Positions 1-53,107 of a stretch of 64,000 nt of DNA are shown one piece after another. The position numbers and the translations under genes are program-made. This stretch comes from Rhizaria sp. SCN 62-66 (taxonomy: Eukaryota), in NCBI GenBank assembly GCA_001724265.1, contig MEDY01000102.1:1-64000 (forward strand), read 5' to 3'. The notes below the pieces were generated by a model, which saw nothing but the letters and a program-made list of their open reading frames with translations, had not been told where the DNA came from and made no database searches. The first letter of the stretch is position 1. Every line of letters begins with the position of its first letter.

Positions 1-1419
1 CCCCAGGGCATGAACAAGATGATTATCAACCACCTGGGCAAGATGTTCGTCACGTCCGACACTGCGACGATCTTGTCTGAGCTAGAGATCCAGCACGCCG
101 CGGCCAAGATGGTCGTCATGGCGGGCCAGATGCAGGAGCAGGAGGTCGGCGACGGCTCCAACTTCGTCATCGTCTTCGCGGGCGAGCTGCTGCGCATGGC
201 CGAGGACCTCATCCACCAGGGCCTCAAGCCGCAGGACATCATCGCCGGCTACACCACGGCCGCCAAGAAGGCCCAGGAGTTCGCCACCGAGCTCATCCTG
301 GCGTCGACGACGCAGGAGGACCTCTTCAAGGAGGATGCCGTGGCGCGCGCCGTGCGCTCGGCCGTGGCGTCGAAGCAGTTCGGCTACGAGGACCTGCTGT
401 CCAAGCTCGTCGCTCAGGCCGCCATCGCCGTCATGCCCAAGAACACGTTCAACTTCAACGTTGACAACGTGCGCGTGGCCAAGCTGATGGGCGGCGACAT
501 CCACACCTCGCACGTCGTGCGCGGCATGGTGTTCCCCTTCCCCACGCTGCCCTCGGCCATCACCTCGGTCAAGGACGCGCGTGTGGCCGTCTTCACGTGC
601 GCCATCGACGCGGCCGACACCGAGACCAAGGGCACGGCGCTGCTCAACAACGCCAAGGAACTCATGGAGTTCAACCGCGGCGAGGAGGTCGAGATCGAGG
701 CGCTCATCGCCGAGGTCAAGGCCTCGGGCGTCAACGTCATCGTCACCGGCGGATCCGTCTCGGACATTGCCGCCCACTTCATGGAGAAGCACGGCATCGT
801 GTGCATGCGTCTCGGCTCCAAGTTCGAGCTGCGCCGCCTCTGCCGCGCCATCGGCGCCCGCCCGCTCGTGTCGCTGGGTGCCGTGTCGGCCGAGAACCAG
901 GGCTTCTGCTCGCACGTCTACGTCAAGGAAGTCGGCCTCACCAAGCTGACCATCTTCGAGCAGGACGACGCCAACACGGCCTCGGTCGCCACCATCGTGC
1001 TGCGCGCGCAGACTTTCAACATGCTCAACGACGTCGAGCGCGCCATCGACGACGGCGTTAACACCGTCAAGGCCATGGGCCGCGAGCGCGGCGGGCACTT
1101 CCTCGCCGGCGCCGGCGCCTTCGAGGTCGAGCTGTACAAGCGCATGAGCGACTACGCTGCCACCGTGTCCGGGCTGCAGCAGTACTCGATCAACAAGTTC
1201 GCCGAGGCGCTGCTCGTGATCCCGCGCACGCTGGCCGAGAACGCCGGCCAGAACGCCACCGAGACCGTGGCGGCGCTGATCGAGGCGCACGAGAAGGGCC
1301 AGCGCGCCATGGGCGTCGCCGTGGCGACGATCCTCCGCGTCGACCAGATCATCCAGTGCAAGGCCGCCGGCGGGCCCAAGCTCCCCGGCAACAAGCAGCA
1401 CTGGGACGAGGAGGACTAA
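1..1419 (+). CDS. CCT8: T-complex protein 1 subunit theta, 5' partial, with an apparent in-frame deletion of about 30 aa near the C-terminus
   Basis: Frame is open from base 1 (PQGMNKMIINHL). Contains QEVGDGSNFV, SKFELRRLC and ERAIDDGVN, and ends with ILRVDQII.K.AGGPK...WDEED, typical of CCT-theta. Stop is TAA. Confidence 0.95.
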   Translation, partial: PQGMNKMIINHLGKMFVTSDTATILSELEIQHAAAKMVVMAGQMQEQEVGDGSNFVIVFAGELLRMAEDLIHQGLKPQDIIAGYTTAAKKAQEFATELILASTTQEDLFKEDAVARAVRSAVASKQFGYEDLLSKLVAQAAIAVMPKNTFNFNVDNVRVAKLMGGDIHTSHVVRGMVFPFPTLPSAITSVKDARVAVFTCAIDAADTETKGTALLNNAKELMEFNRGEEVEIEALIAEVKASGVNVIVTGGSVSDIAAHFMEKHGIVCMRLGSKFELRRLCRAIGARPLVSLGAVSAENQGFCSHVYVKEVGLTKLTIFEQDDANTASVATIVLRAQTFNMLNDVERAIDDGVNTVKAMGRERGGHFLAGAGAFEVELYKRMSDYAATVSGLQQYSINKFAEALLVIPRTLAENAGQNATETVAALIEAHEKGQRAMGVAVATILRVDQIIQCKAAGGPKLPGNKQHWDEED

Positions 1420-1835: not shown

Positions 1836-2203
1836 TCACGCGTCTTTGTTCGAGTTGCGGGCCGCGACAGCAGATGTCGATGAGTGCTGCATAGGCTCCT
1901 CAGTCTCGTAGCGACGAAGCATGCGCTCGCGGTCCTTCTGCAAACCCTTGGTCATCTCCTAGGGGAACACAGGCAAGAGGGTTGACATCAAATTGGTACA
2001 TACAAGTAAGGTATGAGCATGTGAGTTAGTCATCGAGCAGATTCAGAGGACTCTAGCGAGGTCTAGCGGAGGACAACAGCTGTGGCAGAAGAGACATCGT
2101 TATAACGTACCTTGCGGTCAAACTCCTTCTTCCAGTGCACAAATGCAACTGAGACTGCGCAGAAGATGATGGAGCCGTAGAAAGCCTTCTGGCCACGATT
2201 CAT
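1836..2203 (-). CDS. PET117: PET117-like cytochrome c oxidase assembly factor (exons 2203-2111 and 1958-1836)
   Basis: Spliced product MNRGQKAFYGSIIFCAVSVAFVHWKKEFDRK|EMTKGLQKDRERM... has an N-terminal TM helix followed by the VH...DR..M..G...D.ER pattern. Phase-0 GTACGT...TAG intron. Stop is TGA. Confidence 0.75.
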
Positions 2204-2758
2204 GCTGGTGTCGGAGCGAGGCAGAGCGAGACAGGGCGAGTACAGAGGGTTGCGGAACACTTGAGAGGATATAAAAGAGGGAGAATCGAGATATCAACAC
2301 GGAAGTAAAGCTACACCAGCTACTAAGTCTTCTGACAATCAGATGAGGCTGCTTGTAAGTCCTTTGATGTTTGATGCACAGGTCTGCTCTGTGGCTACTC
2401 ATTTGCGGCCTAACTTCCCCGGGCTATGAGGCGATCACCGCAAGGGGTATTTCGTCGGGATAACGAGCTTTCCTGGGTGTATAATTTTATATTTTGATAC
2501 GATATGCTCTACTCTTTATCAAATTAATATCTATGTTTCTGTTGACGGTCAACCCAGCGTGAGGCAGCTCGATCCCTAGTCCTCATCAAGCTCGTCGTGT
2601 CGGCATCACATACCAAACGAAACGCGTCTCCTGAGCATGTCCCCGTCTTGCTTTAGGACTGCAGTTGAATGCTCATAGATTTCGCCCCATATAACTCATA
2701 ATCATCTTATTATTTTGTCTACTGACGCGATCCGTGCGTCTGTACAGGGGCTTTTAGG

Positions 2759-10402: not shown

Positions 10403-11491
10403 TTAGTTGCGGTACCTGTACGCACTCTTGACGAAGAGCTTCTCGCCGTACTCCTCGACGGCAAGCACGCCCTGAGGCTCGTACGGGTACGGGACCTTGC
10501 CTCCGTGGTTGGGGCGCACCTGGACGCCGATCGAGATGAGGATCTCTGCGATCTTGGCCGCGTCGGCCGGGTGGACGTGAATGCAGCCAGCGCTGTTGGG
10601 CATGTCGAACGCCTCGTTCCACCCCGTCGCGTTGCTCCACGCGCCCGTGTGGATGAGGATGCCGTTGCGAACGCGCGGGACGAGGAAGCCCATGTTGCCC
10701 TCGAGCCCCTCGACGATGCGGTTCACCGGGTACGGCCCGTACAGATGCTGGTATTCGGGCGCGAACGCCTCGTTCAAGTCAATGCGCGCCAGCCCCGAGG
10801 GCGTGTTGCCGTTCGAGGTGAACGCGTTGAGCCCCGGCTCGCTGTCGAAGGTCGGCCAGTCCTCCTTGCCCACGGTTGAGTGCCCATGCAGACGCACCTG
10901 GAACGAGTGCAGGATCTTGTGGTTGGCGTCCAGCAGCAGCGCGCGGACCTCCTGGGCGCGCCGCGCGGGCTGTGGAACCCACACCTTGTACTTCCACCCG
11001 GCCGGCGCGGCGGCGTTCTTGCGGTCGTCGCGCCAGTCGTCGAGCGAGAGCACGGACAGCACGATACGCGCGGTGGCGAAGTCGAGCTTGCCGGTGGGGG
11101 TCAGCGTGCTACTGTGCATCACCTGAAACAGCTTGACGGCCGCGGCCGTGAGCGTGCCGAACTTGCCGTCGGGCGTGGGAACGTTGGTGAAGCGCGCGAG
11201 CAGGTTCTGGAGCACGTACACGTCGTTGCCCTCGTCGCCGTGCGCTAGCTCACGCGTGAAGGGGTAGGGGATCGAGTCGCCCATCGCGCGCGCGATCTCA
11301 ACGTCGGGCGTTACGGGTGCCGGCGCGGGGGACCGGTTCGCGTCCGTCAGCTCGTACGCAGAGCCGGGGTACGACCACACGGCGTCGTTGTTCGCGGCAG
11401 CGGCGACAGCGTGGGGGCAAGGCGCGGCGACAGTGCCAGTGGTCGTGGTCGCGGCCAGCACGGCACACGCAATGCCGAGGGATTTGAACAT
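10403..11491 (-). CDS. Secreted protein with a peptidoglycan-binding domain and a YkuD (L,D-transpeptidase-family) catalytic domain
   Basis: Signal peptide MFKSLGIACAVLAA. PG_binding_1 pattern L..GDEGNDVYVLQNLL...PDGKFGTLTAAAVKLFQ...LTPTGKLD.AT. NGNTPSG, then the catalytic pattern GILIHTG-(x)-SAGCIH. Stop is TAA. Confidence 0.8.
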   Translation of the reverse strand: MFKSLGIACAVLAATTTTGTVAAPCPHAVAAAANNDAVWSYPGSAYELTDANRSPAPAPVTPDVEIARAMGDSIPYPFTRELAHGDEGNDVYVLQNLLARFTNVPTPDGKFGTLTAAAVKLFQVMHSSTLTPTGKLDFATARIVLSVLSLDDWRDDRKNAAAPAGWKYKVWVPQPARRAQEVRALLLDANHKILHSFQVRLHGHSTVGKEDWPTFDSEPGLNAFTSNGNTPSGLARIDLNEAFAPEYQHLYGPYPVNRIVEGLEGNMGFLVPRVRNGILIHTGAWSNATGWNEAFDMPNSAGCIHVHPADAAKIAEILISIGVQVRPNHGGKVPYPYEPQGVLAVEEYGEKLFVKSAYRYRN

Positions 11492-11890
11492 GTCTGCAAT
11501 AAGGATACGGAGTATGACAAAGTGGATCCAGTCAGTCAGAGAAAAATATGCAGGAACGAATGCAGGGCAAAGGCATGACGGGTGCAACTGGGGCCAGGAC
11601 TGAGCTGACGCTATCAGGGATATAAAGTCAGCTTTAAAACTCGAACAAAATCGACCAGCACTTATGGCATAAGAGTATAATAGAAACTACATAGACTTCA
11701 CAATATTCCCTTAATTATGCATTCTGAATCGTCTCGTATGGCCGGTTTCTTCTTCTTTTCTGTTTCTCCTTTGGGCTGTTGCAACAGACCTCACACGGAC
11801 GCCAGCACCTAACCGCTCAATTTACTGTCCAGCGAGCTCAAGTCCTGCAACAAGACTTTCTAACGCTTCCAGGCGTTGACACATAGAGCC

Positions 11891-14800: not shown

Positions 14801-17292
14801 AGTGTCGCGTCTGGCGCGGGCTCGGTCGCCGCGCTCTCGCCGCTGCCGCTGTCGCCCGCCGCCACGGCCGCCTTGTCTGCGGCTGGATCGGTTGGCAGCG
14901 CACCCACAGTCACCGGTACTGGTACCGCTGCTCCAGTTGCTGCGGCTGCTGCTGCTGCTGCGGTCACGGCGAGCCCCAAGGCCGTCGCCGCAGGCCGCAG
15001 CGATCTGACCGTGGCCACGACCGCGTTCTCACCCGCGGCGGAGGAGGGCGACGAAGACGACGATGCGGGGCCCATGCTGCCGTCTACGCCCTCGGTCGCG
15101 GCGCGCGCTACGCCCGCGGCCGCGCAGCAGCTGTCGCCGCTGTCGCTTGCGCTTTCGCTGTCCGCGCCCGCGCAGAGAGCGTCGGGCTCCGCCACGACCT
15201 CGCCCAACCGCACCGCTGCCGCCGCCGCCGCCGCCACCATTGCCAACACAGCTGTCAATGGTGTTGACAGTGTTGACAGTGCTGCAACTGTTGCGGCGGC
15301 GGCGGACGTGGGCTCATCACCGCTGCGCTCGCCGACCGCGTCTGCCGCCGCCTCGTTTGGCGGGGCCGGCATCGCTGCACTCCATAACAACGCGTCCGTC
15401 GCGGACGATATCGAGGCTGCTGCGAACATTCCTGCTGCTGCTACTGTTTCTGCTGCTGCAGCGACGCCTGCAGTGCCCGCGGCGCCCCGTGTCCCGCTCG
15501 CGGTCACCGAGGCCGCCGCCGCCGCCGCGCAGGCCGCCCGCGCCCCACTGTCCTCTGTGCGCGCGTCGGCCGCTCTGTGGGGGTTGTTTTCGTCCGCGTC
15601 GCTCAGCTACGACGACGTGCCCGCCGCCACGCTCTCGAGGTACGGAACAAAAGAAAAACAAAACTGGAGATGTCTACGTTCTCAAAATTATTTTTCACTC
15701 CACTCTGTCTGCTTCATCTATTTACTCTTCATTTTCCTTATCAAATCACCTTCATTATGTTCTTACGTATCGCTACCATTTTTTTCAGGCATATGCCGCT
15801 AGCTTCCGCTGCCGACGCCGACCTCGCGAGCTACATCAGCTCTCGCCTCTACAGCGCCACTGCCGGCGATTCCTGGCAGGCCGGCGACGCAGCTGACGCC
15901 AGCGCAGCCGCTGACAGCGCGGACAGCGCGAGTGCCAGAACGCGTGACTCTCGCGGGGAACCCGTGACGCTGGTGCACAGCGCCGCGTGTCCCGCTGTGT
16001 TCACGGCGCGCACCAGCAGCGGCCACAGCCCCGGCACGCAGTCCACGCCGCGGTCCACCGCCCGCTCCTTCGCCGGTGCTGGCCCCGCCCTCGGCAACAA
16101 GGGCCACGCCAGCTCCGCGACCGACGCCAAAGCCGAGGCTGCGGCTGCCGTGGAGGCGGCCAACTGGTATGCCTGGCTGTCCGCGGGCGGCGACGGCGCG
16201 GGCGACGGCGACGGCGACGGCGACGCCGACGCCGAGGCCGCGGCCGAGACGCGTCGCCTGCGCCGCGCATACGGCGCCTGGGCCGCATCGCACGCAGAAG
16301 CCGCGGCGCGTGAACACGAAGACCGCGCGCTTGCGCTGTCGAGAGCGCAGGATACCGCGTACACGCGCACAGCCATCCCCGCTCCCGTTTCCACCTCCGC
16401 CCAGGGGACCGCCGTTGTGGGCCGTGCTGTGTCGGGGCAGAGCGGCGCCAGCGCCAGTGCCAGTGCCAATAATGCGGCGTTTGTTAAGACTAGCGCGGGC
16501 GGTTTGGAGGGTTTCACGCGCATGCTCAGCGCGATGAAGACGGCGCCGCGCCCGACTACAGCGGCATCTGCAACGCCGACTCTTCTCTCTGCGCACCCGT
16601 CTCGCGCTCCCTCGCAGGCGCAGGCGCAGGCGACGACGGTGGCGGGCGCCGGGTTTGCCCGCCGCGTCCCCGCCTCTGCCACCGCAGCCACTGGCTCCAG
16701 CAGCGTCTCTCGCACGTCAAGTGGCGCGAGCGGCTGGGACCCGTTAGGAGCCGGCGTGACCGTGGGTGCCCGTGAGCACTCGACGCGCGCCGCCGCCGTG
16801 GTGCCGGCAAGCCACCGCTCAGCCAGTCACCGCGCCGCTGCACACCGCGCCGCCGCGGCACACGCCCACGGTCGCGCTGGAGCCGGGCTCGGTGTCGAGA
16901 GCGACGACGGCGACGACGACAGCGACGAGGATGGCGACAGGGACCGGCGCAATCGCAGTGTCAGCGCTGTCGCGGGCTCGAAGCCCGACCGGCTGAGCCC
17001 CGGGGCCGTGGCGGAGACGCCGTCGGGGCTGGCGCTGCAGCTGCACACCCACCACCCGCGTAGACTGGAGGACATGGAGGCCGCGGCGCAGGCCGAGGCT
17101 GATGAGTACTCCAAGCGAGAGGCCGCGGCTGCCGCGGCGGCTGTGGGCGCTGCGGCAGCCGCGGCGGACGCGCGCGGCGGCAAGCACGCACTGGAGCGCG
17201 ACCTGACGAACGACTTGGCGGTGCTGCATATGGTGATGAACCCTGAGCAGTCGCTGCTGGACGACAAGGAGCTGCTTTCACTTGGTGAGTGA
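11891..17292 (+). CDS. TBC-domain Rab GTPase-activating protein (exons 11891-13475, 13704-13858, 14047-14369, 14542-15639, 15789-17292)
   Basis: DHYGF, KW..ML, RRGVPAPLRGLVW, IQRDLHRT (Arg finger), GYCQG|MGF (Gln finger), MYATTW and LRLWDAF. All four GT-AG introns restore the frame. Stop is TGA. Confidence 0.88.
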
Positions 17293-17575: not shown

Positions 17576-18003
17576 ATGGTACGTGTCATCACTTTGCTCT
17601 TATGATATATGACGTAAACTCTCTATTTGTTAAATTGAGGCTTTCTTTGGCCCGTACTTTGCGTGGTACGGACTTCGATTAATTCACCATGCTCTGAGCG
17701 CCCACTCACCACGCTCCGCTTGTCCTTTTCGCGTCTGTTCATCCTCTTCCACCCCCTACAGGGCAAGCGCACTAAGAAGGTTGGAATCGTCGGTAAGTAT
17801 GGCACCCGTTACGGTGCTTCGCTCCGTAAGGTCGTCAAGAAGATTGAGGTTGCTCAGCACAGCAAGTACATGTGCCCCTTCTGCGGCCGCAACACCGTCA
17901 AGCGTGAGGCTGTCGGCATCTGGAAGTGCTCCAAGTGCGCTATCCCACCGCTGCTGCCACCCGCTCCACCATCCGCCGCCTCCGCGAGCAGAAGGAGTTC
18001 TAA
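17576..18003 (+). CDS. RPL37A: 60S ribosomal protein eL43 (L37a). Exon 1 is the ATG alone, intron 17579-17761. Frameshifting deletion at about 17939 as assembled.
   Basis: [24 protein letters not shown]...CPFCG...VGIWKCSKC. The conserved tail [19 protein letters not shown] lies in another frame (17944-18003, TAA). Confidence 0.92.
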
Positions 18004-18646: not shown

Positions 18647-20929
18647 TCACGGGTGGACAATGACGGCGCCCACAGGAGCGGCGGCGGCGTCGCGGAACGC
18701 CTGCCTGACGCGCGACAGCGGCACACGCTGCACCTGCACGGCGGGCACAAGGCCCTGCGCCGCGGCCACCAGCGCGTCCGAGAGCACGTGGCGCACGTCG
18801 CCCAGCCGCGAGGGCGCCAGCGCGTGCGCCAGCGGGCACAGGAACGCCACGCGCGCGCCGCGGAAGAAGAGCTGCGCCGAGCGCGCCGGGGTCAGCTCCA
18901 GGGCGCTGAGTGGTGGCGGGGGCGATGAAACACACAAAATGATTAGGTATGCGTGAGGGTGAGGGGTTATAGAGAGTTTAGCATTATCTTTAATATATAT
19001 AAACTTGATAACAGTATATATATCACGGGTTGGTTTGAATTTCGAAAACTAAGTTCAAAAGAAAAAGAAAGGAAACTGCATCGCGATGCCAAGAGGAATA
19101 GATAAGCGTGAACGTACCCATTTGCGACCACCCAGGTCGCGTGCGGCGCGAGACACGCAATAACGGTATCGGGTCCGACCGCGGGGCCCGCAGCGGCAGC
19201 GCGCGCGGCGGCGGCGGCGGCAGCGGTCACAGCCGAGCCACCGCCACGAATGGAGCCAGTGCTGCTGCTGCTGCTGCTGCTGCTGCTGCAGTTCGTGGCA
19301 CTAGAGGGCAAGTACGCCGACTCAAGCTTCGCCAGGCTAGCAGCGGTAGCGGCCGTACTCACGGACGCAGCAGGCGCCGCCACATGCGCCTTCTTAGCAG
19401 CACTAGCATCCACAGCTGCAGCTGCAGCTGCAGCAGCGGTTGCGTCGGCCGCAGTGGCATGCGCACCATTGCTCGCGCGCGCGTCGTCCTCATCCGGGTC
19501 CTCAAGTCCGCTGATGTCGAACGCACTCGCGCCGTCCGCACCGGCAGAGACCTTGCTGTCAGTCGCTCTACCAGCAGGACGCAATTGCGCCTGCGACTGA
19601 GCGCGTGCCTGGGCCGCAGCGGCGACCGAGGCCAGCGCAGCGCGCGCGGCGGGCGACAGACTACTGTCCAGCGCAGCCGCCGCCGCAGCAGCAGCAGTCG
19701 CCACGGCCGCCGCATCAGCGTCTACTCTCGCATGCGCGTTTGCGGTAGCGCTCGCAGCGGCGGAGGCGGCGAGCGCGTCAAACAGTGCCGCGCCGCTCTC
19801 CGCGCTCACCGCCCCGTTGCCCGCGCCCGCACCGGCGCCCGCAGCGCCCGCACCGGCACCAGCAGCGGCAGCTGCGGCAGCGGCGGAAGATGTGGCGGCG
19901 GTCGTGGCGGCGAAGGCGGGCGAGGGTGCCGAGAGGTCGACGATGAGGTCTGCGCCCAGCCCCGCGGACTCGGCTAGGACGACCGCCGCGAGGTCCGTGG
20001 CGCGCACATCAACGGCGCGCGCAACGGCGGGGCAGTCGGAGAAGAGGTTGAGCGCGGCCGAGGACGCGACGGCGACGACGACGCGGCAGCGCAGGCGTGC
20101 GGCGAGCAGCGGCAGTAGGGTGTCTGCGCCCGAAGGCGGCACGATCACCACGACAAGGCTGCCAGGGCGCAGGGACGAGAGCTGGTACAGCGCGGCGTAC
20201 GCGCGCAGGGCCGGCCACAGCAGCGCGGCTGCTGAGTCAAACGACAGCGCGAGCGCGGACGACGACGATGACGAAGATGAGGAAGTGGAAGAAGCTGCAC
20301 TCGTACGAGAAGTGGTGCCTGCGTCAGAGAACGAAAACCCTGTCAAATTGTTGCTGGCATTGCTCGCACTAACGGCCAACGCGCTATTGCTGGAGCTGCT
20401 GCTATTGGTGGTCGAGGCGGACACGGCGGAGAACGCGGAGGGAATGGGCGTGACGTAGGCGGCCGGGACGCAGGCGAACTAGCCGAGGCCGCCCGAGTGC
20501 GACTCTGCGGCCGGCGACGCAAGGGCAACCACGCGCATGCCGGGCGTAAGGTCCACAACGTCGGCGCCGACCGCGGCGACGGTGCCCGCAAAGTAGAAGC
20601 CGCCGACGCGCGGCGTGTCGGGCGAGGCGGCGGCGCGTGCGGGGGTGAAGGGGAGAAAAGCGCCCTGGCGGTGGTCCAGGTCGTCGGGCGTCAGCGCGCA
20701 CGCGTGCACGCGCACGATAACGTCGCTGGGGCCGCAAGTGGGCACGGGGTGCTGTGTATAAGGTATATCGAAACAAAACAGAGATGGTGGTGAGGTGCTT
20801 GAGTGATGCAAACAGGAGCAGTGAGATTGAAGCAAAGGAGAAGAGGGTGCGTACCGTTGTCGAGTACTGGAGCTCGTCATTGTAGCTGGTCAGCACTGCA
20901 GCCTGCATAAACTGCAATGACGCAGACAT
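18647..20929 (-). CDS. CRYZL1: Quinone oxidoreductase-like protein 1 (MDR family), about 655 aa (exons 20929-20855, 20751-19118, 18905-18647), with an internal in-frame TAG at 20481-20479
   Basis: VIVRVHACAL, FAGTVAAVG.DV...PG.RVV, LRAYAALY.L..LRPG, ESAGLGADLIVD, IACLAPHATWV and LELTP..S..LFFRGA.VAFL follow the CRYZL1 order on both sides of the TAG. Terminal stop is TGA. Confidence 0.8.
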
Positions 20930-21488: not shown

Positions 21489-24400
21489 TCAGTTCAGCTT
21501 CACGTCGGCCGGGTCCGCGACCGCCCCGTTGGCGGCACCAGCGGCGGCGGCGGGTTCGTCAGTGGCGGAGCCCTCGGCGGCGGCGATCTGCTGGCTCCAC
21601 AGCGCCGCGTACTTGCCGTCGCGCGCAAGCAGCTCGTCATGCGTGCCGCGCTCGATGATCTTGCCCTGCTCCAGGACCAAGATCTGCTCAGCGTGCATCA
21701 CAGTGCTCAGACGGTGCGCGATGACCAGCGTCGTGCGGCCCTTCTCCAGGGAACGCAGCGCGGCCTGTGAACAAGAAAAAACAATGGGAAGATCATAATA
21801 TAATGTTACGTGAGCTAAGTCAATAAGTAAATACGAGTTATATACCCAAAATACAGTTTCAATACAGCAATACGTTTTGAATGAGATGATATAGCGGACT
21901 ATTTTGTTCGCAGCGACAACGTACCTGGATGCGCTGCTCGTTGAGCGTGTCGAGCGCGGACGTCGCCTCGTCGAGCAGAATGATCGGGGGGTTCTTCAGC
22001 AGCGCGCGAGCGATCGCAACACGCTGCTTCTCGCCGCCGGACAGACGCAGCCCGCGCTCACCGACCTTGGTCTCCCACTTGTCCTTGAGCGAGAGGATGA
22101 AGTCGAGGATCTGCGCGTCGCGGCACGCCTGCTCGACCTCCTCCATCGTCGCGTCGAGCCGGCCGTAGCGGATGTTGTACAGCAGCGTCTCGTTGTACAG
22201 CACGGCGTCCTGCGGCACCGACGACAGCGCCTGCCGCAGGCTGTGCTGCGTAACCTTGCTCGTGTCCTGGCCGTCGATCAGAATGTGCCCGCCAGTGGTG
22301 TCGTAGTAGCGGAACAGCAGCTTGCCGATGGTGCTCTTGCCCGCGCCCGTGGTGCCCACCAGCGCCGTCGTCGTACCCGGCGCGACGGTGAAGGACACGC
22401 CGTCGAGCCCGCGCCCGCTGCGCTGCTCGGGGTACGCGAAGCAGACGTCGCGGAACTCGATCGTCGCGCCGTTAGCGGGGTCCGTGAGGCGGAGCTCGGT
22501 GGCGTCGGGCGCGTCCTTGACGTCCTGCTTCACGCCCAGCAGGTCCAGCAAACTGGTCATGTCAGTCAGCGACTGGATCACCATGTCAAACACAGTGCCA
22601 AGGAATGACAGAGGGGTGAAGAGCTGCACGACGTAGGCGCTCACGGCACTGAAACGGCCGATTGAGAGCTCGCCGCTGGCGACCTTGGCACCGGCGACAA
22701 ACAGGGCCAGCAGCAGGCACATCTGGATGATGAAGCCCTGCAGAGTGTTCAGGAACGCAAGGGAGTACTGCGTCTTGACGTTGTATGCCTGCGGAGTGAG
22801 ATGGAAAAACAAGAAACATCAAACATATGTGAGCAAACGAAAAGAGTTGAATCTAAATCAAGATTCAAGACACCGAGAAAGAGCATGATTGGTGCAACGG
22901 TAAAATCGGACGTACCTGGTACTGCTTGATGGCATCGACGTAGCGTCCTTTCTCGAACTCCTCGTTGGAGAAGGCTTTTGCGGTCTCGTAGTTAATGAGC
23001 GAGTCGGCGGCCAGCTCGTGGTAGAGGTTGTCGTACATGTTGGTGCTCCGGCGGATGACCTTGCGCCACTTGGTGAGCTCAAACGTGCTGCAGAGGTACG
23101 CGGAGATGTGCACGAGCACGATGACCGACAGCAGCGGCTCGCGGAACACGGTCAGGAAGATGATGAAGACGACGAAGCACTCGACAATGCACGGCAGCAG
23201 GTACAAGAACAGGTACGTCACCACCGTGTCGGCAGCCAAGATGCCGCGGTCCGAGCTGCGCAGCACGGTGCCGATCTTCTTGCTGACGTGCCACTGTAGC
23301 GACAGCGAGTGCAGGTGGCTGAAGGTGTGCTGTGCGAGCTCCACGAACGCGTGCTGCTTCACCTGGAGGTAAATCGCGTTCTGCAGCTGCTTCAGCAGAA
23401 TCGAGCCGAAGAGGAAGCCGCAGTACAGCGACAAGTAGCCGTACGGCGTCGTCTCCTCGCTCGTCAGCTGGTCAACGGCCATGCCAATGAAGAGTGGCGC
23501 GATGATTGAGAAGACCTTCGACGCGACAAGCGCGGCCCAGGTAAGCGCGACCTTGACGCGCGGCATCACCCCCTCGGGCCAAAAGTACGGCCGCAGCAGC
23601 GTCGACAGCTCGCTGTAGCGCCACGCCTCCTTCTCCGCCCGCGCGCGCGCGGCGGCTGCGTGCTGCAGCTCAACCAGCTCGGCGGCCTCCACGCGCCGCG
23701 CCTCGCGCGCCTCGTGGTCGTGCAGCGCGTTGCCCGACAGGTGCCGCGCCTCAGCCGCCGCGCGGAGCCGCGCCTCGTCGTTGGCCGCGAGCCGCTTGGA
23801 GCGCGCCTCCAGCTCGGGCTCGGGGCCCGTGCCCCACTTGTCGGGAATGTGAGGGGCGAGCATGACGGCGCCGGCGCACTCGGCCGCGCAGCACAGCGTC
23901 GTGAGCAGCAGCAGGAACGTGTAGCCGCCGTTGGCGCCCGACCAGTCCCACACGACGAGCTTGCAGATGAGCAGCAGCAGCGAGATGAGCGTGACCCAGT
24001 ACGCGCTGATGGGCGCCCAGCGCGACGCGGAGCCCTCGTAAGTGACCGAGTAGAGGAACCAGAAGAAGACGGCGGCGCGGGCGAGCACAACGAAGAACAC
24101 GTCGAAGAGCGCGGTGCCCATTTGCCAGTGCGTGAGTTCATCGCGGCCCATCGACGCCAGGTCGAACCCGTTGATCGAGAGGTAGATGAGCGTGAAGAGG
24201 AAGAGCTCGCCCGAGACGACGTAGCGCGCATAGGTCCAGCGCTGCGTGAACCGCTCGCGGCACTCAGTGATAAACGCGTCGTCCACTGCGTTCGGGTCAG
24301 GCTTGTTCGCGGGCGCAAAACTATCTCCGGAGCGCGGCGACGGGGCGTTCGAGTGCGATTGCAACTGTGACTGCGCGTGTGCGCCGCCGGACTGCGCCGG

Positions 24401-24727
24401 GGAGGTCGCAGAGGAGGACGCGCGCGAGGACGCTTGCGGCAAGTAGGCCGACGAGGGCAGCGAGCCGCGGAACGACATGTTGGTGTCGGCGCGGTTCAGC
24501 GATGACGGGGTTGAGCCGGTGCGCGGCTGACCCTGCGCGGCGTGGTGGCCGGCACTGTGGCCGTTGGTGTTGTGGCCCCTGCTGTGGCCGGCGTTGATCG
24601 AGTGCGCGGGGGCGGCGGCGGTGGGGGAGGGTGCGGTGGCGTCGTCGTCCTCTTTGAAGACGGCGTAGTCGGCCTTCTTTGACCCCGCGGTGGGTTTATG
24701 GGAGCTCTGGCTCCCGTGAGACGCCAT
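21489..24727 (-). CDS. ABCB6/HMT1-type half-size ABC transporter with an extra N-terminal TM region (exons 24727-22916, 22788-21925, 21764-21489)
   Basis: [37 protein letters not shown], Walker [10 protein letters not shown], signature LSGGEKQR, Walker [11 protein letters not shown] and IAHRLST. Stop is TGA. Confidence 0.92.
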
Positions 24728-25256
24728 AGAGACGCCGCGGGCTGATCAGGAAGGAAGAAATAAAAGAGGACAAAGTGAAATCGTTGAGGAATGTGTGAGC
24801 GGTGAAATGAGTCATCGGGTCGAGTGTAGCCAAAGCGATCTAGTCCCATACGCAGGGATAGATACAGCTGCTGACAAAACATACAGCAAAATAAGTCTAA
24901 GTTGAGTGTGTAAATTGCATAACGCGCACTTTCTCACCAAAACAGCTGGTTTGTGTAGGATAAAAGCAGTCTTTCCGTTGCGCAGTTCCTGTTTGTCCGG
25001 ATCGGCATTTTCGCGGAAGTTGTCGGCTCCCGAAAAGAAGTGATATGAACGACAAATAGAGTGTCTGAAGTCGTCATTTTCGATATATTGACAATTTATA
25101 AGCATGTACTTCGATTGTTATCTCATATTGGTATTGACGGTGCTTTGATCGAGATCTCACATTGTCTAAGCTCCATGTTCTCGAAGCTCTTCCGTCACGT
25201 CGCAGCCTCCATCCACGTGACCCACACTCGCTGCTGCCCCCAGCGATACTCAGCGG

Positions 25257-30815: not shown

Positions 30816-31772
30816 TTGAGACTGCGAAGACCGCTATTTATGATGATGTGTTTGACAGTGTTTTTCAGTAGCGATGACTACAAGAATTAGTATGGCCTGA
30901 TTTGTTGTTTGTTTTTGATATCTAGTTTTTGATCCTTGTATGATCAGTGTTTTGTTGCTTTATTTGTTTTAGTTGTCGTGAAATTAATATGAATACATGA
31001 ATCCATGGTGTTTAAGAGGTTAAATTTTAGTGTCGCAGTTTAGTTGCAGTACGGGCGGTGAAAGCGTCGCCGCTAGACGTACGGCAATTAAACAATGATA
31101 GATTGGGACCAATAATATATTGGGACATTTATTATCTGAGATTACATATGTGTAAGTTCATAAATACAAAATCTACTTGGAAGGTTGACCACAAGAGTTT
31201 TGATTTGAGGAGTGTGATCTGTGTATTGTTTATATTGCGATAAGTGCACACAGCTGCCATTTTGCGTCGGTCACAGAAGTGCACGCACATGCAGTTCATG
31301 CCACGTGACAGTGTCATCTTCTTTTGCTAAATCAAATCAACAACAATCGTGCTTTCACAGTTAAAAGTCAACGAAGTATTTTCAAACAGGTGCTATACAA
31401 AACCAAAACAAAACATACGATCGATTCAAACACACTTAATCGGTGCGTTCTTGTCCGCATATGAGTGTACGTGCTTTTCATTGTTGTTGAGTTGCTACAT
31501 TGTTCATAGCCAGCTTCATAATCACAAAAAGCTCGAGGGGGGATGCCAAGAAGCGGTCTAAGTAGCCGGCTCCCGCCCAACACATCCTGCAGCAAAACTC
31601 AAAACAAAGCACAAAACAAAACAAAACAAACAAAGCTAAAACAGAACAAAAACAAAAGCAGTTTCAAGCTAGACAAGCACGTGCGAATTGTCTTTACTTT
31701 ACTCCACCGTGCTGCTGAGCTGTTGCGCGCGTCATGCTTCACGCGTTCGCACTACTTACATCGACCGCGTAC

Positions 31773-33098
31773 TTACATGTGCGAGTAACTGTTTGCCGCG
31801 GGCACGCCCGCGCCGGCCTGGTAGCCCGGTGAAGAGTAGAACGACTGCTGCGGCGCGAGCCCGGGCTGCTGCTGCTGCGGGGACGCAAAGCCGCCCTGCT
31901 GGCCGTAGCCGGGGCCGTAGCCCGGGCTCGCAAAGCCGGGCTGGCCGCCGTAGCCGCCAGCTTGCCCGCCGAGCCCCGCGGGCGTGGGCTGTGCGTACCC
32001 CGACGCGCTTGCTTGCAGCCCGCCCGCGCCAGCCGTCGCCGCGCCGCCGCCCGGCGCCGAGGGCGAGAAGACGAGCTGGCCGGGCTGCATGTGCATGTTG
32101 ACGCCGCCGTTGTACCCCACGTTGCCGGGCGCGGCGCCGGGCGCGCCAGTGTAGGGCGAGGACGGCGCGCGGCCCATGCTGGGCATCGGCGCCGCGGCGC
32201 CGGGGAGTGCGGACCCGGTGACCTGGGGCGCGGCGCCGAGCCCCGAGACGGAGCGCGCGACGTCGCCGTTGGCCACGATACTGTTCTGCGCGTCGAACTG
32301 CGCGAGTGCAACCCAGAGGTTCTGCGCCTCCGAGATCGAGTCGATAGCGTTGAAGTTGTTGAGCGCGCGCGAGAGCGTCTCGAGGCACTGAGCGTGGTAC
32401 GCCAAGTGTGAGCGCAGCACGAAGTTCATCTTGTTCTTGAGCAGCTCGAGACGCGCGAACTCAAACTCAAGCATCGACGCGTTGAACGACATCTCCGTCT
32501 GTGCCATCGAGTCCAGCTCGGTGGCGTGGCGGCGCTGCATCTCCGCGGCCTCGGGCCCGCCGACCTTGATCTGCAGCTCGCTGAGCTTCTTGCCCGTGTT
32601 CTGGAGCTGCGAGAACTGCTTGCGCCGGTTCTCCGCCTGGCCGCGCTGCGTCGACAGCGTCGAGTCGAAGGCCTTGAGGTCGGGCAACACGTTGACCTGT
32701 AGCTGCGAGCTGAGCTGGACGACGGACTGGCGCGTCTTGGACCACTCGGTGTTGACGTTGGCGAGCGCAGCCTGGAACTGCGTCGAGCGCTCCACAGTCG
32801 CCATGTCTGAGATGCGGCGCATCGTCTCGCTCGTCGCCTCAAAGTCGCCTAAAGGGAAACAAACGCGAAATAGGTCGAATATAACGTAGAGTAGATTATA
32901 TGTGGGTTAGACTTAAATTTGAGGACATGGCACGGCATGGTAGAGTGAAACGTTCAAGTGGCACAGAGACAAGGCAGTGGTTGAGCTCGACGTACGCTCG
33001 AGGACGGAGCACATCTCACCGATGTGCTTCTTCATCTTGTTCTGGCTGCGGGAGACGTCCGCAAACAGCTTCTCCACATAATCGCTCTTACCGTTCAT
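31773..33098 (-). CDS. FAM92/CIBAR-like BAR-domain protein with a Gly/Pro/Gln/Tyr-rich tail (exons 33098-32996 and 32848-31773)
   Basis: Three-helix coiled-coil region ending FEFARLELLKNKM...HLAYHAQCLETLS.A..NF.AID, which resembles FAM92 helix 3. The GTACGT...TAG intron restores the frame. Stop is TAA. Confidence 0.65.
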
Positions 33099-36347: not shown

Positions 36348-39300
36348 TCAACCCTGCAGCACGTAGTCACGCGGCTTAATTTCTGCGCCCTCGAGCCACT
36401 GCGCGGACTCGAAATAGGAGCCCGTGAGGTTGCGGAAGCGCAGAATAGTCGCCACGAGCGCGCGCTGCATGCGCATCTGTCGCGCGCGCGCCGACGCGGC
36501 CACCGCGTTGCCGGCGCCGCCCGCTGTGGGGCTCTGCAGCTGCTGCGCGAGTCCCTCAGCGCCCTCGGACGCCGCGCCCGGGAGGATACCCGCGGCGACG
36601 GCGTCGGCGGCGGCGCCGTCCTCGTCGTCCTGGCGGTTGAGCAGGCCCTGGCCCGTGGTGCCGGCGAAGTCGTCCGCCACGGGCTTGCGCAGCAGCTCGT
36701 CCTGGAACGGCTTGTAGAGGCGCAGGTCGGGCAGCGACGGGTATGCCGCATCGAAGGCCTTCATCTGCGCCAAGCGCTCTTGCGGCACTGTGTCGGGGCC
36801 GGAGAGCTTGGCCAGCAGCTTCTTGCGGTGCTCGCGGCGCACCTGGTTCTCGCGCACGAGCTGCAGCAGCGTCTTGCCGCTGTTGGGGTCGGACCCAAGC
36901 TCGGCGATGTGACGCACGACGACGTCAATGAGGATCGGCAGTGCGACGGCGACGGCGATAGCGAACCAAACGGGACCCGACTGGAAGAGGCGGAAGATGA
37001 CGCCGTAGAGCGTGGCGTTGAAGTCAGGGAACACCGAAAGCATGATGGCGACGAGGACAAGCGTGACGATTGAGAAGACTATCGACAGCGCGTGTAGCAG
37101 AGTCACACTCGACATGTCCAGCACGATCAAGAACGTCGCCAAGAATACGATCGAGATGTACACGGCGGCAGCGACGGTGTAGAGCCCGTGGTCGCGGCCG
37201 TCCTTGTTGGCGACGTTGTCCACGGAGAGAGACACAAACGCCACAAAGAAGACCATCGCGGCGTGGCCAAACGCGCGGACGACCCAGATCACGTACTTGC
37301 GGCGAGAAAACAGCGGTTGCATGCGGAGCGAGCGGTACACCTCGGGGTTGTTCTCAAGCGTCTCGCGGTCCACCACGCGGTCCAACACGGCCAGGCACAT
37401 GATCGGCGCGGCCGTGAAGAGCACGTTGAAGAACTGGTACAGCGGCTCGTTGAACAGCTGCTGGCCAGAGAAGCCGGAGAAGAAGCCGAAGTAGTACATC
37501 GTAAGCGCGACGAGCGCGGCCTTGTAGAAGACGTAGTAGATGAGGAACGACACACGCGCGTAGCACCACGCGCCGTGCACGAGCAGCAGCGTGTGCAGGT
37601 GCGAGAACTGCGCGATCGCGTAGTCGGCCGCCTTGACCGCGGCCGCGCCTTCGACGCCAGACACGCCGACGCCGACGTGCGCGGCCTTGATCATGAGCTC
37701 ATCGTTCGCACCGTCGCCGATCGCGAGAGTCACGGAGCCCTCGAACTCGCCCACACGCTTGCGCGCGGCCTCGATCTCGCGCTCCTGCGCCTCGACCAGC
37801 TGCGCCTCGAGCGCCGCCAGCTCAGCGTCGGTCACGCCGCCAGGCACGGCATCACTGACACTCCCGTTCCCGTTGCCATTGCCGTTGCCGCCGCCCGCGT
37901 CGTGCGCGGTGGCGTTGGCGGCGCGGCGCGCGGCGCGGGCGGCCTTGATGCGGCGCACGCGCGTCTCGAGCGAGACGGCGTCCTGCGCGGTGTGGTGCCA
38001 CACCTGCGGGTGCTGCATCGTCACCTTGCAGCGCTCCGAGAGCTCGCGCACCATGCGCTCCTTCATCGGCGGCTCCGCGCCCGCGAAGACGACCGACTTA
38101 CACGCCGACGCAAGCTTAAAGAAGTGGTACTGGAGCGCCGTGCGCTGCGCCTTAGAGACGGACAGATCGAGCGTCGCGCGCGGCGGCGCCGACAGCGACG
38201 GCGCGGGCGACGACAGCGACGGCGAGCCCATCGCGGGCGACGGGAGCGCAGGGGAGCCCAGCGACGGCGGCGCGGCCGGGGACGCGAGCGGGCCCGCAAT
38301 GGTGGAACCCGGCGTGCTGTAGGCGCCGCCCACGGCGGGAGACGCCGCGGAGGCCGCGGCGGCGGCGGCGACGCGGTCTGCGCGCGCCATGAGCCGCACG
38401 GGCGGGCAGATGACGGCGAAGGCTTCGCGCGTGACAACGAGTGACACAGGGAGCCCGCGCGCGCGCATGAGCTCGGCCGTGCGCAGCGACTGCATGATGT
38501 CGATGGCGACGGCCTCGAACTGCGAGACCTGGACCTGCTTCATGAAGGCCTGGAACTCGCTGAGCGTGAGCCGCCCGTCGTGGTCACCGTCGTACATATC
38601 GAACAGCAAACGCATCGAGTGCGCCGCGGGGTGCTCCGTCGGCAGCGTCGCCGGGCCCGCGCCGGCGCCAGACACGCCGCTGTTGCCGTGGGCCGCCGCG
38701 GAGCTGGTGTTGTCGTCGGAGATAACGCCCAGGCCGGAAAGCATGACGATGAGCGCGTCGAACGACAGCGTCACCACGTTGGCGGGCCCCGCGGTCGGGC
38801 TGCCAAGTCCGCCGCTGCTGCTATTGTTGCCGTTACTCGCGTTCGTGTTGTTAAAGCGCGTGGTGAAGTAACTGAAGAGCTCGTTGAGCACGGCGTCGTC
38901 GCCGGCCAGCCGCGCCCACTCGCCGGACACTTCCAGTACGCGGTTCTCTTTGTACGCCGCCTCGACAAGCTCCAGCGAGTCGCCCCCAGCGCGACCCCCA
39001 CCGGCCGCGGTGCCGGCGCCGTTGCTGGCGCCGGCGACTGCGGTGATGTCGGGCATCATGTCTGGGTCGATGAGGCAGCACGCCATGGCGATGTTCTTGG
39101 CCGTGTCCTTCTTGTCGCCCGTCAGCATCCACACCTTGATGCCCGCGCGCAGAAAGTCCGAGATGGCCTCTGGCGCGAGGTCCTGCAGCTCATCCTCCAG
39201 GCCCGACGCGCCCAGCAGACACAGCCCGGCAGAGCGCTCGATGTCCGTCTTGAGCTCGTCGAGCGCATCCTTGGCCTTCTTCTCGCTCTCGGCGTCGTTG

Positions 39301-42300
39301 GACCGGCGCGCCGCGTTGTCGAGCGCCGTGTACCGCGCCTCCCACTGCGCCCACCACGCCTTGGTCTGGCGCGCCTCGGCGACAAGCATGGAGCGCAGCC
39401 CGGCCTTGCACATGCGCTGCATCGACGACTGCAGCGTCGACCAGCTCTGCGCCGGGTTCACCAGCAGCGGCTCGATCACGGTGTCCTGGCCCTTGCACAT
39501 CACGTACACTTCGCCCTCGGGCGATGCCGGCCGGAACGTGCCCGCGCCGGGGGTCTCGAGCACGCGCTCGTACACAACTGTCACGCGGCGCCGTGCCGAC
39601 GTGAAGTGGAACGTCGCCAGCTTGCGGTACACCTCGACCTCAACGGCGTCGCCGCCGGCAGCAATCGCGTCACCTGCGGCAGCCGCGGCAGCGCCGGCAA
39701 AAACGGAGCGCGCGGGCGCGGGCGAGAGCGACGACGACGACGCGGCGGCGGCCTCGGCGGCGGCGGAAAGCGTGCGCACGCCGTCCTGCTCCGCCGGCGC
39801 CGCGAGCGCGAGCGCGGGGGCGGCGGCGGCGGCGCGGGGCGAGGCGGCGCCAGACGCGGCAGCGGCGGCCGAGTTGGGGTCGATATGCAGGTAGTAGATG
39901 GACAGGTCCGAGGGGCTACGTTCCTTGAGCGTAAAGCCGACGGAGCGCGCGAACATAGCCAGCGCGAGCTCGTCGGCCGACTCGGACGCGTACTTGAGCT
40001 CGCCGTGTTTGTCAATAAACGGGGTCAGCGTGTTAGACAGCGCGCAGTTGACCAAGTACCGCCGCAGCAGCATGCGCTGCCGTGCGTCGACTTCCTCGGG
40101 CGCTGGCGGCGCGTTCAGCACTCGCATGTGCGGCTGCAACTGCAGCGAGCTGCGGCGGCCGCGCGCCGCACGGCGGCGCTCCCGGCGCTCGGCGCGCGCG
40201 GCCTCGGCCTCGCTGCCGCTGAGCCCCGACGCGGACGCAGAAGCGGACGCAGACGCAGACGCGGAGCCGGAGCCCGCGCCCTCGGCGTCGGAGCCCAGCC
40301 CGGAGACCGTGGGCGCGGCCCCTACGGCGCCGGCAACAGCGCCGGGCGCGGGTTCGTTGCGGCCCCAGAGCACGTTGCGCAGCGCCGTCGAGTGCAAGAA
40401 CGACTCTGCGCCGGTCGACTGGTTCTCCTGCACGTGCGCCGCCAGCTCGGTCCAGTACGGCGCCGGGCGCGGCTTGACGGGCCGGCCCTGGCGGCGCGCC
40501 TCGCGCTCGTCCTGGAAGTCGAGCTCGCGGGCCGCGGCGCGCTTGGACATCTCCGTCTCCATCTTGCCGAAGGACATCACTGACGCCCACTCGGCAACGT
40601 CCGCCGGCACCGCACCTGCGGTGGCTGCGCCGGGGGCCGCGAGGGACAGAGAGCGCAGCGACGCGCTGGCGTTGGGGTTGGCCGACTCCGGCGCGGCGCC
40701 GGCGGCAAAGAGCGTGCGGCGCATCGACTCGGGCATGTGGCGCGGGTGGGTCGAGCACGACGGCTCGGTGCGCGCGGACGGCACGTCGAGCACGAGCGCG
40801 TAGCGGAACTCCATCTTGTTCTTGGTAAGCGTGCCGGTCTTATCGGTGAAGACGTACTCGATCTGGCCCAGGTCCTCGTGGATCGTCGACTTGTTGCAGC
40901 GCACGTGCTCGTCCTTCTCTGGGGAGTACATCGCGTGGTCCGACTCGATGAGGTAAGAGAGGAACATCTTGACGAGCTCGGACGTGACGAGCAGCGAAAT
41001 GGGCACCATCTGCGACAGAATAATGAAGAACGAAAAGAAAGACAAGATACCCGTCACCGCCGGCGCCGAAGCGAAGCGGATGTACCAGATGTGGCTGTGG
41101 TAGTGGTGCCAGATGCCCGCAAAGAGCCCCGCAACGAAGCACAGCGTCGTCTGCAGCAGCAGCATGTACAGCAGGAAGCGGTCTACAAGCTTGAAGATGG
41201 CCGTGCGCTTCAGATCGGGCTTCTGGTACCATTTGCGCGTGAGGCGCGACATGACGACATTTTGCCGGATCTTGGTGTCGGTGCCAGTGTAGACGACAAG
41301 GCCGAACGCCCAGTCCGTGTTGCGCAGCGTCGTTTCGCGCAGCAGCAGCACTTTGTGGTCCAGCTGCGCCACCACGGGGCCCGCGTTGCCGGCGCCGCTG
41401 GCGCCGCTGCCGGCGCCGACCGCGGGCGGCAGCGAGAAGCGCGCGTCGCCACCGTTCGCAACAGCACCGCCAGCGCCAGCCGCTGCGCCAGCGGCAGAGC
41501 CGGCGGTGCTGCTGCTGTTGGGCTGGTTGCGAAAGTCGGCGCGCCAGAACTCGTCGTCGCCGCGGCGCGCGTCCTGGACGTTGTAGAGCTCGAGTTGGCC
41601 CGAGAAGCGGTCGAGCACGCCGTCGGGCGGGTCGGACACAAGGCGGCAATTGAGCCGCTGCAGCGTCTTGGGATGGTTGAACAAATCATACGTCTCGCGC
41701 ACAGCGAGCATGATCTCCAGCGACGTCTCGCCGTTGAGCGACTTCTTGTCGATGAACGCCTGGCCGTTGCGCGCGTCCGAGGACGACAGAAGGATCATGT
41801 CGGCAGGCACAGCCTCGTCTTGGCGCACCATCACGAGGTCGCCGACAGCGATGTCGCCGGACCGCTTGAGCTCGAAGTTGCGTTTGTCGGCGTTGTAGAC
41901 CATATAGGGCGTCGAGCTCGTCTTGTCGTCGGCGCGGTGCCGCGCGATGTCCTCGACGGCAGCGCGAACGGCCGACACAAACACGATGAAGGCGAGCGGC
42001 ATGTAGATGGTCGGGTAGCCCTGCGTGGTGGAGATCTGTGGGATAATCTGGAGCAGACCGATGAAGAGGAAATACAGGTTCGCAAGCTCGGAAAACTGTT
42101 CGAAGAGGTTCTTGGGCAGGAACGACCAGGCCGTGTAGCGAGAGGTGACGACGATGTTGTTGCAGAACAGGTCCGAGAGCTCAGCGGGCACGGCGCCGTT
42201 GCGGACAATAACTTCGCGCGCGTTGGGGTCGGCCTCGGCGTCAGCGTCGTCGTCGTCGCTGCTCGCCGCAGCCTCGCGCCGCCGCCGGCCGCCACCAGGG

Positions 42301-42596: not shown

Positions 42597-43361
42597 GCAC
42601 TGCGCAGTGTTTAAAAGCAAAGGAGTAGGAGGCGAGCGGGGCAGAGTGTGAGTGGAGAGGGAATATCTTGGAAAACGAAAATGGGAGCGAAGGAGGCTCA
42701 CGTTTAGCCAGTACTTCAGCAACAGTCCTCAGAGCAACGGGGAAAGCTCCAGTATCAGCCAAATATTGAGAAAGTATATGTCGCAACATATTAATGCTAT
42801 TCATCGATCCTGTGTTGTCACTGTCGGTCGAATGGAGGCAGGGTAGTTCGCAAAGAGAAATTCATCAGCAACGACTGTGGGCTCGCCCACCACAAGAACA
42901 GACAAGCCGCTCGGACAGTGTCTAGAACGCGTCTGACTGGTCTCCCACTTACGCATATGACATTATTTCATCACTTTCTAGGGATTAGCGCTCCTATTTG
43001 ACTTGTCTTTTCAATCGCGTCTGTAGGCATCTGGTTTATTGGCGAACGCAGACCTCTTTTCTGTAGCTCGCCTCCCTCACCAACTCTCCCTCCCCGTCCT
43101 CTCTTCAGGCTTCTGTTTACCGCACTTCCAACGTTGTTTATGCTATATATCCAACTTTCTGCTTACAACACCGTTATTTATCACTGTTGGTATGTCTTTT
43201 TGCTCATTGAAGCAGGTCTTACCGCTCTCGTCGACCCTCCCTCTCCACTCGCGCGCCTCCACTGTAGTCAGCCCGCTTTCCCAGCGAGTTTAGCACGCGC
43301 CCTCCCGCCCGCATCGCCTCCATCCCGGCGTCCGCGCGCTTTCTACGCGTCTCCCGTTTTT

Positions 43362-52290: not shown

Positions 52291-53107
52291 ATGTCTGATA
52301 TCAAAATCAAGAAGGCGGTACGTTCTATATACTTTTCAATTCTTCTTGATAACCCTCCTTCTATCCCTGTATCACTCGCACGCCGTACTCAATCACTCAC
52401 ACTTTTCCCATCCACGTCCTCCCCGATTGTCACCACCTCGTTGCCACCCGGTTGTGCCCGTTGTCTAGGTTGCCGAGTCCGGCAAGCGCAAGCTGACTGT
52501 AGTGATGATCAATGCGTGCCTGGAGACTGTCAAGACGAAGCGCGGCATCGAGCTCGTGACCGCCGACACGCACGCCAGCATTCTCAAGAAGCTCAAGCGT
52601 GCGCCCGCCGACTACCGCCCGGACATCCTGCATCAGTGTCTGCTCACGCTGCTCGACTCGCCGCTTAACAAGGCCGGCATGCTGCAGGTCTACATTCAGA
52701 CCACGAACAACGTGCTCATCGAGATCTCCCCGTCGGTCCGCATCCCTCGCACCTTCAAGCGTTTCGCCGGTCTCATGGTGCAACTGCTGTACAAGCTCAA
52801 GATCCGCGCCTCCGACGGCCCCGACGTGCTGCTCAAGGTGATCAAAAACCCCGTCACGCAGCACCTGCCGACGAACGCGCTCAAGTTCGGCACCTCCGTG
52901 ACTGGCGAGCTCATCAACATCGCCGACTTCATCCAGCCCATCAAGGACGACACGCCCGTGGTCTTCACCGTCGGCGCCCACGCGCACGGTCCCGCCGAGG
53001 CGGACTGGACGGAGAAGCTGCTCGCGCTCTCGCAGTACCCTTGCTCCGCCTCGGTCATCCTCGGCCGCATCTGCAACGCCTTCGAGGCCAAGTGGGGCGT
53101 TCTCTAA
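52291..53107 (+). CDS. EMG1: 18S rRNA pseudouridine N1-methyltransferase Nep1/EMG1 (exons 52291-52317 and 52469-53107)
   Basis: RPDILHQCLL.LLDSPLNKAG.LQVYI, RIPRTFKRFAGLMVQLL, LLKVIKNPVT.HLP and GA.AHG. Stop is TAA. Confidence 0.96.

Follow-up and report, generated by a model that had tools for sequence, protein, structure and literature searches.

The window considered here, which is a stretch of 64,000 nucleotides of contig MEDY01000102.1 of Rhizaria sp. SCN 62-66 (positions 1 to 64,000, forward strand), contains a CRYZL1-like gene of the MDR family in which codon 116 is an in-frame TAG. This TAG is real and goes beyond chance. Its best explanation, held with moderate confidence, is translation of UAG in this organism, with Glu as the probable and Gln as a possible residue, and with UAA and UGA serving as terminators. 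Decoding of UAG would fit the observations better than random lesions, because both in-frame stops of the window are TAG, no decay is seen after either of them, one of them stands at a Glu column one base away from GAG, and neither an in-frame TAA or TGA nor a TAG terminator is encountered.

The TAG is located on the minus strand at 20481..20479, where it was read directly from the sequence, and faces the Glu that is conserved in the MDR segment 'GG.AEY'. The minus strand reads ggc ggc ctc ggc TAG ttc gcc tgc gtc ccg gcc gcc tac gtc acg ccc att ccc at this site, which corresponds to the protein sequence ...SHSGGLG-[TAG]-FACVPAAYVTPIPSAFSAVSASTTN... In the alignment with PDB entry 4dup_A, the segment GGAYAEY is placed over sgglgXf, with the X, standing for the TAG, opposite E. 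Among the 21 closest homologues, this column is occupied by E in 19 and by D in two. The same picture is obtained from a wider set of 148 homologues (149 matches, of which one longer than 1000 amino acids was dropped), with E in 116, Q in 16, D in eight, S in three, another residue in four and a gap in one. The preliminary description had placed the stop at the Glu/Gln position of the MDR segment, and the alignment agrees with it, Glu being dominant and Gln next. From this single informative column, Glu would be preferred to Gln at a ratio of about 7 to 1 (116 versus 16); as Gln is the commoner reassignment in the literature consulted, Glu is no more than the favoured residue. The conversion of GAG into TAG is a single base change. 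The Pfam domain ADH_N (PF08240) extends across the site; reading through the TAG as X gives a score of 47.0 bits over profile positions 1-103 of 104 (cut-off 23.5), while the part before the TAG alone reaches 42.4 bits.

The CRYZL1-like gene (20929..18647, minus strand) is modelled with three exons and 655 codons, so that 539 codons lie beyond the TAG, in line with the approximately 540 that had been described. Exon 1 (20855..20929) comprises the ATG and 24 further codons (MSASLQFMQAAVLTSYNDELQYSTT) and constitutes a typical MDR N-terminus; the homologues begin with MKAAVL... It is followed by intron 1 (20752..20854), which has 103 nucleotides, the borders GTACGC...CAG and a lower G+C content than the exons. 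Exon 2 (19118..20751), with 544 codons plus two nucleotides, encodes the ADH_N domain, a Ser-rich insert, the Rossmann part, which includes a PPSGAD motif, and a long Ala-rich insert; several homologues also carry inserts at the site of the latter. The AT-rich intron 2 (18906..19117) has 212 nucleotides and the borders GTACGT...CAG. It splits a Gly codon between GG and C and changes the genomic frame, and the earlier wording of a "frame-preserving intron" had to be given up for this reason. Exon 3 (18647..18905), eventually, consists of one nucleotide, 85 codons and a TGA terminator and encodes a CRYZL1-type C-terminus. The protein ends in ...GAVIVHP, and the homologues, judged from the alignment of the 21 closest, end in ...GKVIIKM; because the protein end coincides with the homologue ends, the TGA is taken as the true terminator of the gene.

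Decay after the TAG is not seen. The 453 exon-2 codons that follow it and the 85 codons of exon 3 are free of stops, both introns keep the borders GTACG...CAG, and homology to P0004, which is the closest full-length homologue (360 amino acids, 36-38% identical), is retained. The other two sense frames of the 453-codon stretch hold 7 and 18 stops, and 7 of 20000 mononucleotide shuffles of it remain stop-free. An in-frame ATG is not present anywhere in the 539 codons downstream of the TAG, and the conserved downstream two-thirds of the protein could therefore be made solely by reading the TAG. With ADH_N spanning the TAG, the downstream part aligning to P0004 and the 539 codons free of stops, the gene is otherwise undisrupted and probably of CRYZL1 type, as had been stated previously.

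The assignment to the family stems from an exhaustive search of 1.84 billion representative proteins, which yielded 506 matches at E <= 0.001. P0004 matches the residues upstream of the TAG (BLASTP, E 1e-10), the Rossmann part downstream of it (41% identity, E 3e-19, with the common stretch PP.GAD...VVAVA.S.ALNLF.DC) and, with its residues 276-358, exon 3 (35% identity, E 1e-15). When P0004 is searched against the PDB, human CRYZL1 (7nd2_C) is the best match at E 7e-49, the next family, the quinone oxidoreductases, following at 2.9e-22. The same search with the window protein returns 4dup, a bacterial quinone oxidoreductase, at 8.8e-11, VAT-1 at 2.5e-8 and a weak match to CRYZL1 (7nd2) at 5.1e-6. 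The C-terminal block of P0004 to which exon 3 aligns also aligns to 7nd2. The name "CRYZL1-like" would thus fit the gene and is supported, but indirectly, since it is reached via P0004. Human CRYZL1 (PDB 7nd2) belongs to the same MDR fold family, has Glu at the aligned position (GLCEV) and possesses a C-terminal LQLDPPDS...FL...W.L block that is common to P0004; the window protein is unlike it in having 655 residues with the Ser-rich and the long Ala-rich insert. A word-indexed homologue search with residues 47-330 gave no scoring match; the low-complexity inserts are suspected of swamping the index. A scan of genome contigs gave a single locus (L001, 33% identity), that of a bacterial quinone oxidoreductase, which was set aside as irrelevant.

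A second in-frame TAG was found by frame scans on the plus strand at 50280..50282, where it is codon 2427 of a 2,509-codon open frame (43002..50531). The product of this frame is rich in Ala and Pro, with several polyproline tracts. Behind the TAG, a tail of 82 coding-like codons (50283..50531), recognized by G+C content and codon usage, runs to a TAA that is followed by AT-rich sequence; the tail ends in ...ENDDVADEEWDD (...EEWDD). Its G+C content is 0.69, and its codon usage scores +0.43 bits per codon in frame versus about -1.0 in the other two frames; the ORF (open reading frame) score is 0.52 bits per codon. The 150 nucleotides after this TAG have a G+C content of 0.73 and an in-frame score of +0.46 bits per codon; for the 150 nucleotides after the TAG at 20479..20481, the values are 0.61 and -0.03. 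The corresponding stretches behind the 19 tested TAA and TGA terminators have a G+C content of 0.29-0.57 and score -0.78 or lower in every frame. In the ESM Atlas, the clusters nearest to the tail carry WH2 in 16-19% of their members, with scores of 0.87-0.88; these are below threshold and serve as a lead only. The tail may resemble the WH2-connector-acidic end of an Arp2/3 activator.

Public gene calling breaks at both sites. The ORF call P0003 (88 amino acids, 100% identical) stops just before the TAG of the CRYZL1-like gene, and the ESM Atlas record of the tail ORF begins at the first Met after the second TAG (Met 8). Since the public calls break at both TAGs, these are not artefacts of the present sequence copy.

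For a survey of stop-codon use, all six frames of the window were scanned for stops flanked on both sides by open, coding-like sequence. The sense frames of recognized genes contain exactly two such stops, both of them TAG (20479..20481, minus strand; 50280..50282, plus strand). In these six-frame scans, the sense frames of recognized genes yielded neither a TAA nor a TGA that is flanked by coding sequence on both sides, and the other flagged stop sites lie antisense to known genes. Position-specific G+C failed to separate sense from antisense frames that share third positions; a codon-usage score was used instead. Three further TAGs were discarded as candidates; the one at 15800 is out of frame beside an intron, the one at 52466 forms the 3' end of an intron, and the one ending the ORF 2063..2293 lies inside an intron of a small gene terminated by TGA.

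The 22 terminators that could be assigned comprise 15-16 TAA, 6-7 TGA and no TAG. They are made up of 19 that were tested by codon usage (14 TAA, 5 TGA) and three others. The eL43 gene and the gene at 61076..62209 end in TAA, the small two-exon gene (2202..1836) ends in TGA, and the methyltransferase gene may end in TGA at 35846 and not in TAA at 35531. At a TAG share of 20%, the chance of finding none among 22 terminators is, by simple arithmetic on this small sample, about 0.7%. This lack of TAG contrasts with the sense codons, where third-position G+C is near 0.9 and G-ending forms exceed A-ending ones about 7-10-fold in the pairs for Glu and Gln, with 428 GAG versus 42 GAA and 297 CAG versus 44 CAA. 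At one gene end, that of the ORF 31773..32906, the TAA is directly followed by GTACGC, the local donor motif (31770..31775, minus strand), which may reflect an intron in the 3' untranslated region or chance.

The explanation that competes most directly with a translated UAG is that the standard code applies and that the TAG is a recent nonsense lesion, be it in a young pseudogene, as a fixed null allele or through a consensus error, so that a fragment of 115 residues would be made. This is regarded as rather unlikely. With the standard code, the TAG would by itself be a disabling lesion at codon 116, as is typical of pseudogenes; one substitution suffices to derive it from GAG, the codon bias of the gene is weak, the frame of the eL43 gene, also in this window, is shifted by a gap, and a suppressor tRNA is not seen in the window. 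In addition, two in-frame TAGs are all that occur, which is a density unlike that of known reassigned codes. A lesion would, however, have to be reconciled with the absence of any second lesion from the 539 codons after the TAG and with the conservation of the downstream part. It would further require that nonsense changes arose twice independently among about 22 genes, both to TAG and none to TAA or TGA, which is a high and oddly specific rate, and it leaves the lack of TAG among the 22 terminators unexplained. A copy-specific error is opposed by the public ORF calls that break at the same sites. The preliminary description had left the choice between recoding and a young pseudogene open, and this position still holds. 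Recoding specific to these genes under an otherwise standard code, either by programmed readthrough or by RNA editing (U-to-C, giving CAG, or A-to-I, giving UGG), is considered improbable. It would account for a gene that stays open and conserved after the TAG, both TAGs are preceded by a GGC codon, and in filamentous ascomycetes, premature UAG codons are known to undergo stage-specific A-to-I editing. Yet the shared GGC is weak evidence, because GGCTAG is a depleted hexamer in the window (10 seen versus 29 expected). A common downstream signal is not apparent either; the next codons, which were compared with known readthrough motifs, are TTC GCC and GCC GCG, respectively, and folding of the 120 nucleotides after the TAGs gave z = +1.06 (175 of 200 shuffles fold at least as well) and z = -1.63 (15 of 200). 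Codon 116 of 655 is not a usual site for a readthrough extension, A-to-I editing would yield Trp where the family has Glu, and the lack of TAG terminators would again be left unexplained. Insertion of pyrrolysine was considered and set aside, since its machinery is not known outside archaea and bacteria.

Removal of the TAG from the mRNA by splicing, with the TAG serving as the 3' splice site, has to be judged against the introns of the window. Eight introns were read, including those at 20752..20854, 18906..19117, 15641..15788, 52319..52468 and 17579..17761. They share a G before GTACG, a pyrimidine-rich 3' end in YAG, a high AT content and a length of 103-212 nucleotides. Two of them end in TAG, which lends the idea some ground, and there are GT...TAG stretches that would keep the frame, namely 376 nucleotides from the donor of exon 1, 54 nucleotides from an internal GT and, in the second gene, a candidate intron of 15 nucleotides (GTCGCGCAGGGCTAG). 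These candidates are G+C-rich and lack the GTACG donor or the pyrimidine tract, unlike the eight introns, and their excision would remove conserved ADH_N residues that align with the homologues. Both in-frame TAGs are situated in G+C-rich sequence without local intron signals. Splicing is thus deemed highly improbable, in keeping with the earlier statements that no intron removes the TAG and that the nearest GT...TAG, at 25 nucleotides, would shift the frame; the latter was confirmed from the sequence.

Several points weigh against a translated UAG. The case is built on two codons and 22 terminators, and a broken gene is present on the same contig. This is the eL43/RPL37a gene (17576..18003, plus strand), in which exon 1 is the ATG alone and is followed by the intron at 17579..17761. 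Its exon 2 matches residues 3-60 of many ribosome structures (E about 2e-27), and the conserved C-terminus (residues 73/74-91) follows at once from 17941, but in the +2 frame, so that about 12 residues are missing in a frameshifting gap (17938..17941); a segment of the AGGA[YWF] type was not found near the gap. No genetic code repairs this gap, so that an ordinary lesion or a fault of assembly must be present at least once on the contig; this raises the odds that the TAGs are lesions, too. In-frame TAGs are rare, with two in approximately 16,000 codons by a tally of ORF lengths, or about 1 in 8,000. They occur in two of about 22 genes, and of these two sites one is conserved (Glu in 116 of 148) and the other is without homologues. 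For comparison, the rhizarian exLh has 384 in-frame UAG codons in 71 genes according to the available part of its description (PMC5304391), which is a far higher density than that of the window. ARAGORN detected no tRNA gene in the window, no Rfam family was found in it, and the eRF1 gene is not part of it. The codon bias of the CRYZL1-like gene amounts to 0.13 bits per codon, which is similar to the 0.10-0.21 of other low-complexity genes of the window; strongly biased genes show 0.5-1.0. This weak bias fits low expression, but it also fits relaxed selection. A close orthologue of the gene was not found among the 1.84 billion representatives, where beyond the self fragment of 88 amino acids, the sole match at E <= 1e-30, identities do not exceed approximately 40%. 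For the second site, the 82-residue tail has no real match in Pfam or PDB, and a word-indexed search with the tail, restricted to longer proteins, left none of 576 candidates at E <= 0.01. The support for the second site comes from composition, codon usage and the weak Atlas lead.

If UAG is nevertheless translated, the CRYZL1-like gene would be a working gene and its codon 116 a rare sense codon. Decoding would be accomplished by a tRNA with the anticodon CUA or by near-cognate readthrough, and recognition of UAG by eRF1 would be weakened. The residue inserted would most likely be Glu, Gln being possible. As a tentative and somewhat doubtful proposal, this may be a nascent UAG-only reassignment to Glu in an uncultured eukaryote, in which UAG has gone as a terminator and is only starting to reappear inside genes. 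A codon with no use as a terminator and hardly any as sense would represent the intermediate over which the codon-capture and the ambiguous-intermediate models disagree, and the question would become directly testable on the tRNAs and the eRF1 of the organism. Nuclear codes in which UAG and UAA differ in meaning are rare, since eRF1 reads both, and each new lineage helps to show how the two meanings uncouple. A practical consequence of a differing code would be the systematic truncation of the proteins of this organism in databases; both genes are already cut at the TAG in public protein sets.

With regard to the genomic setting, the window is gene-dense eukaryotic nuclear DNA with a G+C content of 0.53-0.76 per 2 kb. 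The third-position G+C reaches 0.8-0.96 in many genes, and a higher AT content is found in introns and intergenic DNA. Sampling of the lineage to which the organism belongs seems to be poor; the CCT-theta gene (1..1419, plus strand) has public relatives at 93%, 83% and about 70% (72%) identity, and among the 120 best matches listed, no EukProt taxon exceeds about 50% identity to it. The best structure match of eL43, a chain of the Toxoplasma ribosome, is too weak as an indicator of lineage. Other genes of the window include an ORF of eukaryotic style with high third-position G+C (10403..11686, minus strand), which combines the bacterial-type domains PG_binding_1 and YkuD (L,D-transpeptidase) and is possibly a transferred gene. 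An uninterrupted gene of 2,126 codons for a P4-type phospholipid flippase (36348..42728, minus strand) shows an EF-hand match (residues 1372-1398) in the cytoplasmic region. In an ABC half-transporter (22865..24745, minus strand), the N-terminal region weakly matches the MENTAL cholesterol-capturing domain (E 1.6e-6).

Summarizing, the window may be compared with two groups of variant nuclear codes, as far as these are covered by the available portions of the sources cited. Reading of UAR as Glu is described for peritrich ciliates and for Blastocrithidia nonstop (PMC11687900, PMC12153298). These systems resemble the present reading in that a stop of the UAR pair is read as Glu. They differ from it by changing UAA and UAG together, and in Blastocrithidia also UGA; in the window, most genes terminate with TAA and several with TGA, the CRYZL1-like gene among the latter. 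Reassignment of UAG only is described for the rhizarian exLh (Leu) and Iotanema spirale (Gln) (PMC5304391) and for phyllopharyngean ciliates (Leu, Gln) and Scotinosphaera (Ser) (PMC11687900). In this literature, Gln is a commoner reassignment than Glu (PMC5304391, PMC11687900). The UAG-only codes described there thus give Leu, Gln and Ser, whereas the one informative site of the window points to Glu, and the literature search turned up no G+C-rich non-ciliate example of this kind. The genome of the window is also unlike the UAG-only systems in being G+C-rich, with a third-position G+C near 0.9, and in that no suppressor tRNA is seen in the window. The pattern of stop-codon use is the point of closest agreement. 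The terminators of exLh are 56 UAA, 15 UGA and no UAG (PMC5304391), and in the UAG-only codes as in the window, UAG is the only in-frame stop, termination is by UAA and UGA, and UAA is the commoner of the two.

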